This document shows positions 1-5,065 of a stretch of DNA of 5,065 nucleotides, piece by piece. Positions within the stretch are counted from its first letter, which is position 1, and each line of letters begins with the position of its first letter. Origin of the DNA: a virus (taxonomy: Duplodnaviria; Heunggongvirae; Uroviricota; Caudoviricetes); IMG/VR virus record IMGVR_UViG_2778261387_000002; one strand, given 5' to 3'. The notes under the pieces were generated by a model. It searched no databases. It had not been told where the DNA came from and worked only from the letters and a program-made list of their open reading frames with translations. Position numbers and translations under genes: made by a program.

Positions 1-1460
1 GTACTGAGTAACGGTATTTTCTCCCCGCTTGTGCCGAGTTCTCGTAAACCGAGGTATTCGATAACGGCAGCAACGGTCGATTTCGCAAGAATATCCCGCC
101 CGACTTTTGTCAGGGTTGCCAGGCTGGCGACATCATTCCCCGTAAAATACGGAAACTTGCCTGCCGCAGTAGTAAGTCCGGCCAGCGCCGTCAGGGTGGC
201 ATCTTTCGGTTGCTTACCCGCAAGCGCGTTAGTCATGGTGGTCGCAAAATTCGGGTCGTTGCCCAGCGCCGCAGCCAGCTCGTTCAGCGTGTTCAGTGCA
301 TCAGGTGACGAATCTACAAGGGCGGCAATCGCAGCCATAACGAAAGCCGTGCTTGCGATTTGGGTATTATTCGTTCCCTGTCGCGCAGTTGGTGTTGTTG
401 GCGTTCCGGTCAGTGCAGGACTATTTAAGGGCGCTTTCTTGTTCGTTTCATCCATTACCGCCTTAACAGCTTTCGATGTCGCGGCCAGTGTTTCAGACGT
501 GCTGTTGGTGGCACTACTGAGCTGGACTATCCCTTTTTGTGCCGTCGTGGCGTCCTGAGCGGTATATTTTGCGTTAGCAAGGTCATACGCGGCCTTTACT
601 GCTTTCGGCGTTGCAGCCTGCGTTTCAGACGTGCTGTTGGTGGCGCTACTGAGCTGGACAAGGCCTTTTCGCGTCGTGCTGGCATCCTGCGCAGTATATT
701 TACCGTTAGCAAGGTCATACGCGGCCTTTACTGCTTTCGGCGTTGCAGCCTGCGTTTCAGACGTGCTGTTGGTGGCGCTACTGAGCTGGACAAGGCCTTT
801 TCGCGTCGTGCTGGCATCCTGCGCAGTATATTTACCGTTAGCAAGGTCATACGCGGCCTTTACTGCTTTCGGCGTTGCAGCCTGCGTTTCAGACACGCTG
901 TTAGTGGCGCTACTGAGTTGAACAAAGCCTTTTGCGGTCAGCGAGGCGTCCGGGTGACGTCGTGACTGTTCATGCTCTTTCAGTTTGTCATCCACGTAAT
1001 CCACTGTGGCCATCACCATGGTGTTATCCACGGTAAGCACCACGGTGGCAGTGCTGGATACGGTCAGAATGGTGCGAAATGTTTGTGCACGACCGGACCC
1101 TTCGGCAACGGCTGGCTTGTAACTTTCGGCAGTATTGCCCACCGCGATTAAATCGCCGTGCTCATCAAATACACCAATTTCCCGGATCCAGAATCCGCCC
1201 GTTTCAGGAGGAATAACCAGCTCCGCAATAATGCGGTTCTGATGTGTTGCGTCCAGGATGACGCGATTAACAGTATGTCGCCACACCTCATGCACCAGAC
1301 GGGTCTGCTTACTGTCTGGTGTGGGCAACGTGCCGCCACCGTCGCCCACGGCCATATGAGTCAGGCGGACAGGCTTACCATCTGGCGCGGCTGCCTGAGC
1401 TAATTTTTTGGCACCCGTATCGGTGATAACGGTTTTAAATTTACGTGTTGTGGTACTCAT
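1..1460 (-). CDS. H: Tail fiber protein, N-terminal ~486 codons; gene is truncated by the window edge and continues beyond position 1
   Basis: Hand translation of the minus strand from ATG at 1460-1458 is open to the window edge. It begins MSTTTRKFKTVITDTGAKKLAQAAAPDGKPVRLTHMAVGDGGG..., which matches the conserved N-terminal baseplate-attachment domain of P2 H / lambdoid side tail fiber proteins. It then carries 44-aa repeats (KGLVQLSSATNSTSETQAATPKAVKAAYDLANGKYTAQDASTTR) of the phage tail-fibre repeat type, and the conserved tail fiber block ...NALAGKQPKDATLTALAGL...VGRDILAKSTVAAVIEYLGL. It is absent from the ORF track only because it has no stop inside the window. Start is 2 nt after the stop of gene I. 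Confidence 0.9.
   Translation of the reverse strand, partial: MSTTTRKFKTVITDTGAKKLAQAAAPDGKPVRLTHMAVGDGGGTLPTPDSKQTRLVHEVWRHTVNRVILDATHQNRIIAELVIPPETGGFWIREIGVFDEHGDLIAVGNTAESYKPAVAEGSGRAQTFRTILTVSSTATVVLTVDNTMVMATVDYVDDKLKEHEQSRRHPDASLTAKGFVQLSSATNSVSETQAATPKAVKAAYDLANGKYTAQDASTTRKGLVQLSSATNSTSETQAATPKAVKAAYDLANGKYTAQDASTTRKGLVQLSSATNSTSETQAATPKAVKAAYDLANAKYTAQDATTAQKGIVQLSSATNSTSETLAATSKAVKAVMDETNKKAPLNSPALTGTPTTPTARQGTNNTQIASTAFVMAAIAALVDSSPDALNTLNELAAALGNDPNFATTMTNALAGKQPKDATLTALAGLTTAAGKFPYFTGNDVASLATLTKVGRDILAKSTVAAVIEYLGLRELGTSGEKIPLLS
39..64. other. Candidate DNA-invertase crossover site (gix/hix/pix/cix-like) inside the tail fiber coding sequence
   Basis: Plus-strand sequence TTCTCGTAAACC-GA-GGTATTCGATAA consists of two 12-bp imperfect inverted half-sites (9 of 12 positions symmetric) around a 2-bp core. 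By my recollection of the Mu gixL site (TTCCTGTAAACCGAGGTTTTGGATAA) it matches at 22 of 26 positions, including the central AAACCGAGGT. It encodes ...VIEYLGLRELG..., the constant/variable junction region of invertible tail fiber genes. Confidence 0.45.
469..960. repeat. 132-bp in-frame tandem repeat array (about 3.7 copies) within the tail fiber gene, with a perfectly identical core
   Basis: Copies at 601-732 and 733-864 are identical at all 132 positions by direct comparison. Perfect periodicity extends over about 573-894. Flanking copies at 469-600 and 865-960 are diverged at scattered positions. Each unit encodes one 44-aa tail-fibre repeat. Confidence 0.95.
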
Positions 1461-1462
1461 GC

Positions 1463-1993
1463 TTAATCGTCCGGATAAATGGTAATGACTTCGCCGTCGT
1501 AAGTTGCTGCCGCCGCGAAAATATCTCCCTGAATCTCCTGAATGATATTCAGCCCTGTCATGTGGCGGCTGACCGGGCGGGCATCAGCAATCAACCGCTC
1601 CATTTCCAGATACATTTCCTCCGTCACGCCACTGTCCAGCGTGCCGACTTCAACGGTAAATGTTCCCGGTTCTCCGCCGAACTCCCACCACTCAGACACG
1701 CGAATGAGGTATCCCAGCGGCTCAATGGCCCGGCGCAGTGCGCTGATGGTCCCTTTGTGTCGGTGTATCAGCCATGCATCACGAATCACCTGTCGCTTTG
1801 TCTCTTCCGGCCAGTTGCGATCCCAGCGGTCAACGGAAAATGCCCAGGCGAGATAAGGCAGCAGATGCACCGGGCAGGTGTCCGGTGACCACAGCGTGTT
1901 GAGGTCTACCGGGATGTCTGTAATGCGCGCTCCGACAGCTTCGGCGCAACGCATGAAATTGCTGGCTGATGGCGGTAACAGTGAATTACTCAT
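1463..1993 (-). CDS. I: Baseplate assembly protein I (P2 gpI family), 176 aa
   Basis: Track ORF 1463..2026. The product (MSNSLLPPSASNF...LWSPDTCPVHLLPYLAWAFSVDRWDRNWPEETKRQVIRDAWLIHRHKGTISALRR...) is recognisably P2 gpI-like. I place the start at ATG 1993 rather than 2026: it has a Shine-Dalgarno AAGGTGG 4-5 nt upstream, gives the 176-aa length of P2 gpI, and overlaps the J stop as ATGAGTAA. The 2026 start is a GTG with no ribosome-binding site. Confidence 0.9.
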   Translation of the reverse strand: MSNSLLPPSASNFMRCAEAVGARITDIPVDLNTLWSPDTCPVHLLPYLAWAFSVDRWDRNWPEETKRQVIRDAWLIHRHKGTISALRRAIEPLGYLIRVSEWWEFGGEPGTFTVEVGTLDSGVTEEMYLEMERLIADARPVSRHMTGLNIIQEIQGDIFAAAATYDGEVITIYPDD

Positions 1994-2882
1994 TACGCCC
2001 ACCTTCGCTGATGGTGAATGACTCACAGCGCGCCGCCTGTATGTCGCTGATGGCCATATTCTGTGTGGGTTCGATTATCTCCACGCGTTGCACGCCGTGC
2101 ACATGAAGTGCGGCAGCAATGGCTGACAACGCCACGTCCTGACCAATAAGCCCCTGCTCAGCCAGCCACTTCCTGAACGACGATTCAGCCGCAGCCAGAA
2201 TAGGTTCGGATTCCGGGCCGGGGTAAAAGTACAGTTTTGCATTCAGCCGCCATGTCACGATGCTGGCGCTCTGTACGGTCAGTCGGTCGGCCACCGGGCG
2301 GGTATCCTCTGCATTCAGAACGGCGCGAACGGTATTAAGCAACGCCTCCGTTGCTGTGCCGTCGCCTTCAGTGGACAGAATGGAAACCGTCACACAGGCC
2401 GGAGACGGGCTGATGGCCCGCGCATCACGCACCAGACCGCTGGCGCTGCGTGCAAAATACTCGTATGCACCTGACGGGCCAGCAACACTCAGGCCGTCAT
2501 ACGCCCGCTGCGCCCGCAGTCTCAGCGAGGTGTCGCTCTCCATCACCGCGTCGGTGGTATCCGTTGCCGGAGTGATAACCAGGCGCTTTGTGTTCATATT
2601 GCCCGCGAGGTTGTCCAGGTTTGTCCCTGAACCGTGGCTTAACATGCAGGCGCGTGCGCCCTCGTTAACCCGCTGGCGTAACAGCATTTCACGAAACGAC
2701 ATGGTTTGAGCGATAACGTTCAGGGGTTCTGATTCCAGCTCCAGCGCGGCGGAGACGGCTTCACGCTGTTCGGCAGGATAGGACGCAATCATCATGGCCT
2801 TTGTGTCAGCCAGAATTGCCTCAAAATCAGGCTCCGCGATGATGGCGGGTTCCGGTAACTGGGAAAGATCAACAGCAGGCAT
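1986..2882 (-). CDS. J: Baseplate assembly protein J (P2 gpJ family, baseplate wedge), 298 aa
   Basis: Track ORF 1986..2882. N-terminus MPAVDLSQLPEPAIIAEPDFEAILADTKAMMIASYPAEQREAV and the body (GLSVAGPSGAYEYFARSASG...SPSPACVTVSILS...YFYPGPESEPI...HVHGVQRVEI) are colinear with P2 gpJ as I recall it. ATG start lies 3 nt after the W stop. Confidence 0.92.
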   Translation of the reverse strand: MPAVDLSQLPEPAIIAEPDFEAILADTKAMMIASYPAEQREAVSAALELESEPLNVIAQTMSFREMLLRQRVNEGARACMLSHGSGTNLDNLAGNMNTKRLVITPATDTTDAVMESDTSLRLRAQRAYDGLSVAGPSGAYEYFARSASGLVRDARAISPSPACVTVSILSTEGDGTATEALLNTVRAVLNAEDTRPVADRLTVQSASIVTWRLNAKLYFYPGPESEPILAAAESSFRKWLAEQGLIGQDVALSAIAAALHVHGVQRVEIIEPTQNMAISDIQAARCESFTISEGGRNE

Positions 2883-2885
2883 GAT

Positions 2886-3236
2886 TTACTCTCTCAGCGT
2901 GATGGTTAATTCAACATTCTGCATGGTCTGCATGACAGTGCCCGACAGCGTCACCCCGGCGCGGCCTCCTGCCTTCCAGACAACGTCGATGGCGTCCAGG
3001 GCAATGCGGGGTTCCCATCGTGTCAGCGCAATCACGGCAGCACTCATGCATTGCAGACGCGTGGTGTTATTCATGGGTTCGTCAATCAAATCAGGCACAA
3101 GGCTGCCATATTCCCGTCGCATAACCCGGCTTGCCAGCGGGGTGATCAGGATGTCCCTGACTGACTGTTTCAGGTGCTCCATATCGTTCAGGTTTCCCGT
3201 CCCGTCCGGGTTCATTCCTGTGTAGCGGGTTGTCAC
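2886..3236 (-). CDS. W: Baseplate assembly protein W (P2 gpW / T4 gp25-like), 116 aa
   Basis: Track ORF 2886..3236. Product MTTRYTGMNPDGTG...SVRDILITPLASRVMRREYGSLVPDLIDEP... resembles P2 gpW (MTARYLGMNR...VMRRDYGSL...). GTG start preceded by a strong Shine-Dalgarno AGGAGG at a 5-nt spacing; it overlaps the V stop as GTGA. Confidence 0.9.
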   Translation of the reverse strand: MTTRYTGMNPDGTGNLNDMEHLKQSVRDILITPLASRVMRREYGSLVPDLIDEPMNNTTRLQCMSAAVIALTRWEPRIALDAIDVVWKAGGRAGVTLSGTVMQTMQNVELTITLRE

Positions 3237-3814
3237 TGCGGGCCTCCTGTCGAATCGCTGCCACCTTTAACGCCACCGTGCTTATGCGTATGCACGGTAA
3301 TGCCGTTTGAGGTGAAATTGCCGCCGCTGTGCGTGATATTGCCGCTCATCTTTCCCTCTTTTGTGACGTCAAGCGTCGCCGTTCTCAGAAGGTTTGTGCA
3401 TTCCACGACGGGCGTATCCAGTGTCACGCTGACGGATGCCTGCAGGGTGGCTGTTTTCATGCCGCTGGCGCTCAGTGCGCCAGCGTCTGCGTCGTAGCGG
3501 AACACCGCGCCATCCGGCGCGCTGACCACGATTTCTTTCAGGCTTTTGCCGGGGGCCGGACTGGCATCACTCCACAGGCTGCCAATTATCATGGCGGTTT
3601 CCGGGTTGCCGCCAATGCAGGCAATTACCACCTGTTCGCCTGGTGATGGCGGCAGCCACACATTGAAGGCTCCCGCGCGCGTGGTGTTCCAGCGCAACCA
3701 GCCTGTTTCCAGTTCGCCGCTGCGAACGCGCACGCGCCAGGACTTCTCATCAACTTCAGAGATGATCCCGGTGCGGATGATGTTGCTCAGCAGTCGCATG
3801 AGTTCTGCGCTCAC
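3233..3814 (-). CDS. V: Baseplate central spike protein V (P2 gpV family), 193 aa
   Basis: Track ORF 3233..3814. Product has the gpV-like N-terminus (...LLSNIIRTGIISEVD...) and the C-terminal VHTHKHGG motif. GTG start preceded by Shine-Dalgarno GGAGG at a 7-nt spacing; it overlaps the stop of the S-like gene as GTGA. Confidence 0.9.
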   Translation of the reverse strand: MSAELMRLLSNIIRTGIISEVDEKSWRVRVRSGELETGWLRWNTTRAGAFNVWLPPSPGEQVVIACIGGNPETAMIIGSLWSDASPAPGKSLKEIVVSAPDGAVFRYDADAGALSASGMKTATLQASVSVTLDTPVVECTNLLRTATLDVTKEGKMSGNITHSGGNFTSNGITVHTHKHGGVKGGSDSTGGPQ

Positions 3815-4446
3815 CGTACAGCCTCCGCAATCCGGCCCAGCACCGTGTTATAAATCAGGCGCTCATCTGCCTGGCTGATACCCAACAGCTCACGTACCGG
3901 GTAATCGGTGAAAATGCCCGGCGCAACCTGATCGCGCTCACCGAACTGATGAACGCGTGCAATACGTGCGGCCACGCCGCTGTAACCCACCGTCACACCG
4001 GAGGCATCTGCACGGGCTTTCAGGTAGCGGGCGGTGCGCAGTTTTACGAACATGGGGACGCGCTTTGTGCTGTCCTGGTTGATGCGCCGGGTGCGTATTT
4101 CCAGAAAACGGTCGATGTCATCCCGGTAAAACGTGCGGATATTGTTTTTATCCTCATCCCACCCGGTAATGGTTCGCCCGTATTTCCCTGTGTCGTGATG
4201 CCAGTTTTTCAGCGTGCGTGCTTCGTTATTCCAGATAAAGCGAATGCGCTCCTGTATCCGGGTTACGCGGCGTCTGCGTGGTGTCCATTCGGTCCCGTCC
4301 GGCGCTTTTTGTGACCGGATACGTGCCTGCTGGGCGCGACGTAAATCCTGTGCCAGCTTTCTGGCGATGTTATTGATGGCCTGCTGATTCAGGCTGTCGC
4401 GGATAGCCTCAAAGGTTTCATCCACGCGGGTGAATGCCTTATCCAT
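3811..4446 (-). CDS. Phage virion morphogenesis / tail completion protein (P2 gpS / Mu gpG family), about 211 aa
   Basis: Track ORF 3811..4455. The motif ...ARKLAQDLRRAQQARIRSQKAPDGTEWTPRRRR... matches the virion-morphogenesis family as I recall it. I prefer the ATG at 4446 (Shine-Dalgarno GGGGTGA about 6 nt upstream; overlaps the R-like stop as ATGGATAA) over the GTG at 4455 used by the track. The position matches P2 gene S; the size is larger than P2 gpS. Confidence 0.78.
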   Translation of the reverse strand: MDKAFTRVDETFEAIRDSLNQQAINNIARKLAQDLRRAQQARIRSQKAPDGTEWTPRRRRVTRIQERIRFIWNNEARTLKNWHHDTGKYGRTITGWDEDKNNIRTFYRDDIDRFLEIRTRRINQDSTKRVPMFVKLRTARYLKARADASGVTVGYSGVAARIARVHQFGERDQVAPGIFTDYPVRELLGISQADERLIYNTVLGRIAEAVR

Positions 4447-4906
4447 CGCTTTCACCCCACGTCACATCCTGGAATACATGCGACCAGTCGCCTTCGGAAG
4501 AAGGCAGACGGGGTTTTGGCTCCGGCAGGTGTTCTGCCTGCGGTGTGCCCTGACTGTTGCGCGTGATGCGAACGCGTTCCCGCAGGGGGAGCGTAAACAG
4601 GAGATCGGCGCTGTCATCGTCATTGATAACGGCAGAAAATTTGATGTCCTGATTACGCTCCGGATTGAGCAACAACTGTGGCTGATTTTCGGATAACCAC
4701 GCCAGCAGCGGCAGCGTGAGGTCGTCCAGCTCTCCGGCGTAATCCATGACAAACATCACCATCTGATAGCGGTAAACAAACGAGGGCGCTTCTCCGGTCG
4801 TTTCAATGTTGCCGCTCTCCACGAAAATGGTGAATTTCTCGGGATTAGCCTGGCACCACCGACACCCATGAAGCATGGACTCTCGCAGACTGTTTGTCTT
4901 AAGCAT
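4439..4906 (-). CDS. Tail completion protein R-like (P2 gpR family), 155 aa
   Basis: Track ORF 4439..4906. Same length as P2 gpR and occupies its position. The pattern MLK..SLR...ANPE.F.IFVESGNI...LPLLAWLSENQP is consistent with my recollection of gpR. ATG start with Shine-Dalgarno GGGAGAG about 8 nt upstream. Confidence 0.72.
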   Translation of the reverse strand: MLKTNSLRESMLHGCRWCQANPEKFTIFVESGNIETTGEAPSFVYRYQMVMFVMDYAGELDDLTLPLLAWLSENQPQLLLNPERNQDIKFSAVINDDDSADLLFTLPLRERVRITRNSQGTPQAEHLPEPKPRLPSSEGDWSHVFQDVTWGESDG

Positions 4907-4930
4907 CTGTTTTGCTCTCCTGCTCTTCCT

Positions 4931-5065
4931 TATGCTGCGGGATTATTGATTTCCAGCACCAGGCTGCCGATATCGACGCCGTACGCGGCATTTTTAGTGA
5001 TATCAGTTAACGTCAGCGCATTCAGCCCCAGTGTCAGACTGTCTTTTATGACCTGGAATGCCGGG
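4931..5065 (-). CDS. 3' end of an upstream gene of unknown function; C-terminal 44 codons only, gene begins beyond the window end
   Basis: The minus-strand frame ending at stop TAA (plus-strand 4931-4933) is open to the window edge and reads ...PAFQVIKDSLTLGLNALTLTDITKNAAYGVDIGSLVLEINNPAA*. The other two minus-strand frames have stops. It has the same orientation as the operon and sits about 25 bp from the R-like start. I cannot assign a family from this fragment. Confidence 0.35.

Follow-up and report, generated by a model that had tools for sequence, protein, structure and literature searches.

The tail fibre gene in a 5,065-nt stretch of prophage DNA (hereafter the window) has probably gained, by a genuine tandem duplication, one extra 132-bp unit encoding a 44-residue PF03406 shaft module. 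The window represents the tail module of a P2-like prophage, of the type that E. coli ST131 strains carry. Comparison with the three-unit allele showed exactly one added period of the repeat, which turns the order of units from A-B-D into A-B-B-D and leaves the fibre gene otherwise unchanged. The ancestral allele is the A-B-D form, since it was present on at least 2,000 contigs and also in the diverged phages P88 and 520873. An earlier reading made from the sequence only had described a recently expanded, in-frame tandem repeat in a tail fibre gene, an interpretation that proved correct in all essentials. The present analysis adds that the gene lies on the minus strand, that the repeat is a known Pfam family, and that a 59-nt homology tract explains the junction.

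All the real genes in the window were found on the minus strand. Family matches identified genes R (tail completion; 4439–4906, PF06891), S (virion morphogenesis/tail completion; 3811–4455, PF05069), V (spike; 3233–3814, PF04717, PF18715 and PF18946), W (gp25-like wedge; 2886–3236, PF04965), J (baseplate J; 1986–2882, PF04865) and I (tail protein I, 176 aa in the source contig; 1463–1993, PF09684). These lie in P2 order and are followed by gene H, giving R-S-V-W-J-I-H, the tail gene order also seen in P2, P88 and 520873. Gene H codes for a P2 gpH-type tail fibre; its 5′ part (486 codons; 1–1460, minus strand) begins with an ATG at 1460–1458 and runs past the left end of the window. The translated product starts with a baseplate-attachment (‘tail-collar fibre’) domain (aa 1–170; 951–1460, minus strand), recognized by PF12571 (aa 6–153, E 1.2e-53) and 96–100% identical in many IMG/VR P2-like contigs. 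Four stretches matched PF03406 (‘Phage tail fibre repeat’) with a score of 271.7 bits (the gathering cut-off is 22 bits) and E 1.2e-82; the best one, aa 261–302, covered positions 1–42 of the 42 in the profile. The presence of PF12571 and of four PF03406 stretches, together with the P2-type V-W-J-I-H synteny, confirmed the earlier assignment of the repeat to a tail fibre gene. The complete fibre in the source contig (locus L026) has 705 aa (WP_102776473.1); its C-terminal receptor-binding part and the downstream Tfa (Caudo_TAP, PF02413) genes lie outside the window and are present in that contig.

After the repeats, fibre residues 368–436 (approximately 153–359, minus strand; ALVDSSPDALNTLNELAAALGNDPNFATT...) matched a chain of solved structure, 9d93 (‘Tail collar fibers, gp4’), with E 5.6e-11; the segment is a second widely shared fibre motif. 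A Resolvase/HTH_7 gene encodes a DNA invertase that switches the C-terminal part of the fibre; beside it lie a partial fibre gene in inverted orientation and another Tfa gene. The switched C-terminus was observed in loci L007, L026 and L108, and the invertase region is located just left of the window (1338–6029 in L007; 4001–8560 in L108). The two forms generated, of 740 aa (P0118) and 661 aa (P0070), begin to differ about 25 codons past the left edge of the window, and the four-unit allele was seen only in the 661-type orientation. An 810-aa protein labelled Enterobacter cloacae (P0008) contained the 740-type C-terminal part up to ‘...FRINYK’, a restart at ‘TLTKVGRDIL...’, and then the C-terminus of the 661 type; either the two invertible variants are fused in it or the sequence was misassembled. 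These fibre motifs were reportedly described earlier by Sandmeier (Mol Microbiol, 1994), and the sequence of the P2 H gene was reportedly given by Haggard-Ljungquist et al. (J Bacteriol, 1992).

Direct comparison within the window showed segments 601–732 and 733–864 to be identical at all 132 positions, as the sequence-only reading had stated. The perfect identity was wider than two units: 572–762 equals 704–894, a 191-nt match at an offset of 132 nt whose origin by chance is impossible, and the 132-nt periodicity is strict across 572–894. The flanking units were diverged, also as claimed, with 20 of 132 sites differing between 469–600 and 601–732, and 49 of 132 between 865–996 and the identical units, the likeness of the former being limited to approximately 865–933. 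The segment 337–468 was unrelated to the repeat unit (38/132). Tandem Repeats Finder reported a single array at 460–933, with a period of 132, 3.6 copies, 91% matches, no indels and a score of 752. The extent given earlier for the array, 469–960, is roughly right but cuts the last unit, as the protein units span 423–950.

The 132-nt period corresponds to 44 codons in frame on the minus strand, which is the coding one. The four 44-aa PF03406 (Phage_fiber_2) units of the fibre shaft were named A (aa 171–214; 819–950), B (B1; aa 215–258; 687–818), B′ (B2; aa 259–302; 555–686) and D (aa 303–346; 423–554), all on the minus strand. At the protein level, B and B′ are one residue apart, within the last six (GKYTAQ versus AKYTAQ). 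The perfectly periodic tract at 572–894 can be written as T-Y-T-Y-T, where T has 59 nt and Y has 73 nt. The three copies of T are located at 572–630, 704–762 and 836–894, the first of them encoding SETQAATPKAVKAAYDLAN, the conserved segment that forms the helix of the unit. The copy at 704–762 is the only one with Y on both sides, and the 61-mer at 703–763 is not in the three-unit allele; it was found only in L026 and in L005, the diverged four-unit locus of strain 99-3165. The extra 132 bp can be any single T-Y period inside 572–894. Segment 601–732 was taken as the nominal extra unit, its deletion restoring the three-unit ST131-type prophage allele. Two plus-strand ORFs, 537–965 (142 aa) and 631–921 (96 aa), overlap the array; they were rejected as genes, being periodic shadows of the repeat with neither a family match nor other support.

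Once 601–732 was removed, the window was identical to the prophage of E. coli strain 4/1-1 (L007) at 1328 of 1328 positions in the fibre gene, and at 4932 of 4933 over its whole length. The sole difference, at position 4118 in gene S, is a T in the window and a C in strain 4/1-1; the window's base is common to the two-unit loci L108–L111 and to the three-unit loci L010 and L021. The last two, which are IMG/VR contigs, matched the shortened window exactly from end to end. The 100% identity of the fibre gene, minus one unit, to the three-unit ST131-type prophage allele agrees with the earlier claim of a very recent event. When an 801-bp query was compared with 5,426 complete E. coli genomes, it covered a span of 669 bp, i.e. 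three units, in each of the best 60, among them the ST131 strains EC958 and JJ1886.

The sequence-only reading had proposed either duplication or gene conversion as the origin of the identical units. The first of these stood, the window being exactly 132 bp longer than its identical relatives, while the second did not. Conversion could have evened out two differing units of an older four-unit array, and the mean likeness of adjacent units within arrays (0.79, versus 0.73 between arrays) does fit some concerted evolution. However, conversion changes bases and not length, and the window differs from relatives that are otherwise 100% identical by the addition of 132 bp, not by substitutions. Further, no near-identical four-unit relative with two different middle units was found in this background. 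Gene conversion is therefore hardly credible here, and is effectively refuted by the difference in length.

In the three-unit allele, the periodic tract is reduced to T-Y-T: the 59-nt T occurs in unit A and again, at a distance of 132 nt, in unit B, and the array has no longer exact repeat (L007). The sum of 59 and 132 is 191, the length of the perfect run seen in the window. The tract T of the three-unit allele and the 191-nt run in the window point to misaligned recombination or slippage within T. The two T tracts would pair out of register, and either unequal sister-chromosome exchange or replication slippage may then have added 132 bp. As expected for misaligned pairing, the insertion is exactly one period long, its junction lies inside a pre-existing identical 59-nt tract, and the reciprocal deletion product is present in an identical background. 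Such a product, arising from misaligned pairing with the opposite sense, would be a two-unit allele whose first unit has the head of A and the tail of B. The corresponding two-unit proteins were constructed for both orientations of the invertase switch and found exactly, that of 696 aa on 15 contigs and that of 617 aa on 52 contigs (about 67 in total). At the DNA level, taking 264 bp out of the whole window gave the two-unit allele without a single mismatch. The complete chromosome AP026479.1 carries this allele, as do contigs of 0.37–1 Mb. In the prophage of AP026479.1 (L109), IS1 genes were found directly downstream of the fibre gene (5935–6581), at the position usually occupied by the Tfa chaperone, and the invertase gene is truncated, so that this prophage copy is probably decaying.

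One identical background thus contains alleles with two units (about 67 contigs), three units (at least 2,000 contigs) and four units (one contig), these numbers being population snapshots. An anchored-gap scan of IMG/VR with the window's flanks detected the two-unit form at two loci and the three-unit form at seventeen, with none for four or five units. The comparison of relatives at this locus, which the sequence-only reading had proposed as a check, did reveal copy-number polymorphism. The series of two, three and four units in an identical background, and the one to eight units present in relatives, also bear out its claim that copy number can change in frame without breaking the ORF.

Deletion between tracts demonstrably happens, as the two-unit alleles show, and four-unit arrays are present in other prophages, those of strains 99-3165 and A1. 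It could hence be argued that the four-unit form is the older state, and that the three- and two-unit alleles arose from it by successive deletions. This order of events is very unlikely: the two B units of the window are identical at 132 of 132 positions whereas the other four-unit arrays are diverged, the A-B-D structure is common to P88 and 520873, which are 2–3% diverged, and the four-unit form is a singleton. Duplication in a three-unit ancestor remains the preferred explanation.

The insertion in silico of one B unit into the 661-aa ST131-type prophage fibre gave exactly the 705-aa protein WP_102776473.1. The sole contig recorded for this protein is PGHA01000059.1 (6,691 bp), from the draft E. 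coli assembly GCA_002886295.1. Once reverse-complemented, one end of this contig is exactly the window, which corresponds to bases 1–5065 of locus L026 in reverse orientation. PGHA01000059.1 is recorded for ‘2 samples’, which may or may not be independent, and UniRef gives n = 11 for the 705-aa protein, a count that may include fragments falling short of spanning the array. The right end of the window (5065) is the end of the source contig (position 1 of L026), and an unrelated metagenome scaffold (L111) begins at the identical base; short-read assemblies seem to break repeatedly at this point, presumably because of a repeat that another prophage also has.

The four-unit allele was not detected in this background in any of the 5,426 complete E. 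coli genomes inspected by megablast, nor did anchored fixed-gap DNA patterns detect it in IMG/VR contigs, JGI metagenome contigs or GTDB representative genomes (zero in each). A collection of 15 billion proteins contained neither the 784-aa four-unit form expected for the other invertase orientation nor the exact 486-aa fibre fragment, and five-unit forms in this background were not found either. The homologue search scored only 8,000 word-tied candidates and missed the true 705-aa protein; it is no census.

The sequence-only reading had warned that perfect repeats of this size are prone to misassembly, and the warning was justified, given that the four-unit allele was found nowhere other than in a 6.7-kb draft contig. 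The isolate may in fact have three units, a de Bruijn assembler with a final k of 59 or less having gone twice round the loop formed by T; this is possible, if rather unlikely. The product of a double traversal of T-Y would equal the window base for base. The contig of origin is short, comes from a draft assembly and covers a region where many short-read assemblies break up; in 41 of the 63 blocks of the two-unit allele the longest contig has 5–10 kb, and many ‘partial’ fibre proteins come from contigs of about 5 kb. In addition, the four-unit allele is a singleton as against the at least 2,000 three-unit contigs, and is absent from all the complete genomes checked. However, such an artefact needs not only a k of 59 or less but also the failure of read threading over a 59-nt repeat, which reads of at least 75 nt normally resolve. 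With k above 59 there would be no loop, since no read from a three-unit genome would show T between two copies of Y. As T is shorter than typical Illumina reads, and as thousands of three-unit assemblies are correct, over-traversal by the assembler should be uncommon. Further, real gain and loss of the T-Y unit is seen in complete chromosomes (AP026479.1, with two units; U12A, with five), so a rare four-unit isolate is to be expected. Similar perfect expansions in finished or independent genomes (U12A; L044 and L046; P0001, P0006 and P0007) lend support to a genuine duplication in the window as well.

The number of units could be scored at 78 of 80 IMG/VR loci that encode a related N-terminal domain. 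One unit was present at seven loci, two at 23, three at 30, four at 12, five at one, seven at two and eight at one; no unit was detected at two of the 78. Perfect runs of at least 132 nt at an offset of 132 were found at three of the 80. The five units of U12A include a perfect run of 245 nt, and the close relatives P0001, P0006 and P0007 contain the B unit three times. Two otherwise alike IMG/VR loci, L044 and L046, have eight and seven units, respectively, the additional one being an identical copy, while locus L035 shows a duplication of two units (264 bp). Judging from these three loci, the array also changes by other steps in other lineages. A search of the literature on PF03406, P2 gpH and tail-fibre tandem repeats found no paper on copy-number variation of this array.

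The closest known system is the fibre of the ST131-type P2-like prophage with three units (P0070, 661 aa; P0118, 740 aa). Its DNA is identical to that of the window bar the 132 bp, and its gene order, N-terminal domain and A, B and D units are the same; B is present twice in the window (705 aa), and in one draft contig only. Like the window's phage, P2 (gpH, NP_046775) and the Xuanwuvirus phages P88, 520873 and Shae_phiSM have fibres in which PF03406 units repeating every 44 aa come after PF12571; the fibre gene belongs to a V-W-J-I-H operon, and a gene for a Tfa chaperone lies downstream. The number of units is two in P2 and Shae_phiSM, three in P88 and 520873, and four in the window. In Citrobacter phage Shae_phiSM the first unit is a hybrid with the head of A and the tail of B, as expected from a deletion in tract T.

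More distant proteins contain the same repeat in other arrangements. The S protein of phage Mu (PDB 5yvq, 8ju3 and 9ki1) has the same motif of about 42 aa as the window, KG.VQLSSATNS.SET.AATPKAVK; residues 102–152 of Mu S align to one unit of the window protein, and just one unit of this kind is found in the Mu fibre chains of known structure. PF03406 also occurs in lambdoid side tail fibres and in collagen-like prophage fibres, and this type of domain has been named Pf2 in the prophage fibres of EHEC (PMC3368898). In contrast to the one or few isolated units of Mu S and of the lambdoid and collagen-like fibres, the window has a head-to-tail array of variable number. In EHEC prophage fibres, the lengths of the collagen and heptad regions vary by multiples of the repeat (PMC3368898), and intragenic tandem repeats are reported in Legionella (PMC2639597). 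In these systems, as in the window, an in-frame change in copy number alters the length of the protein without a frameshift. The window differs from them in that its unit is long (132 bp) and in that a 59-nt homology tract, not short-unit slippage, would drive the change.

The unit is a module of the shaft, which links the N-terminus that binds the baseplate to the receptor-binding C-terminus that the invertase switches. With one more unit the trimeric shaft should be longer by one module, and both ends of the fibre would remain unchanged. An AlphaFold2 model of the monomeric array, run with no alignment, showed a repeating strand-then-helix pattern per unit; its mean pLDDT of 39.7 is too low for a search by fold and for deriving the added length per unit. 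By default, the extra module is expected to be a length variant that is neutral or almost so. It is quite unlikely, if conceivable, that the array is a selected length switch, in which the 59-nt tract would let a prophage population gain and lose 44-residue modules at appreciable frequency. Were that so, the reach of the fibre would be tuned to the thickness of the O-antigen or capsule layer of the host, and the series of two, three and four units would be standing adaptive variation and not neutral noise.

The phenomenon is already known in kind: the repeat is catalogued in Pfam, in-frame tandem duplication is textbook knowledge, and the protein is in RefSeq. The four-unit allele is of little importance on its own, and may even be an assembly error. 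It does serve as a warning for the annotation of draft E. coli genomes, in which 44-aa differences in fibre length at this locus need confirmation at the level of reads. For the biology of these phages, the alleles with two, three and four units in otherwise identical DNA would make up a natural isogenic series in which a possible effect of shaft length on adsorption or host range could be sought.
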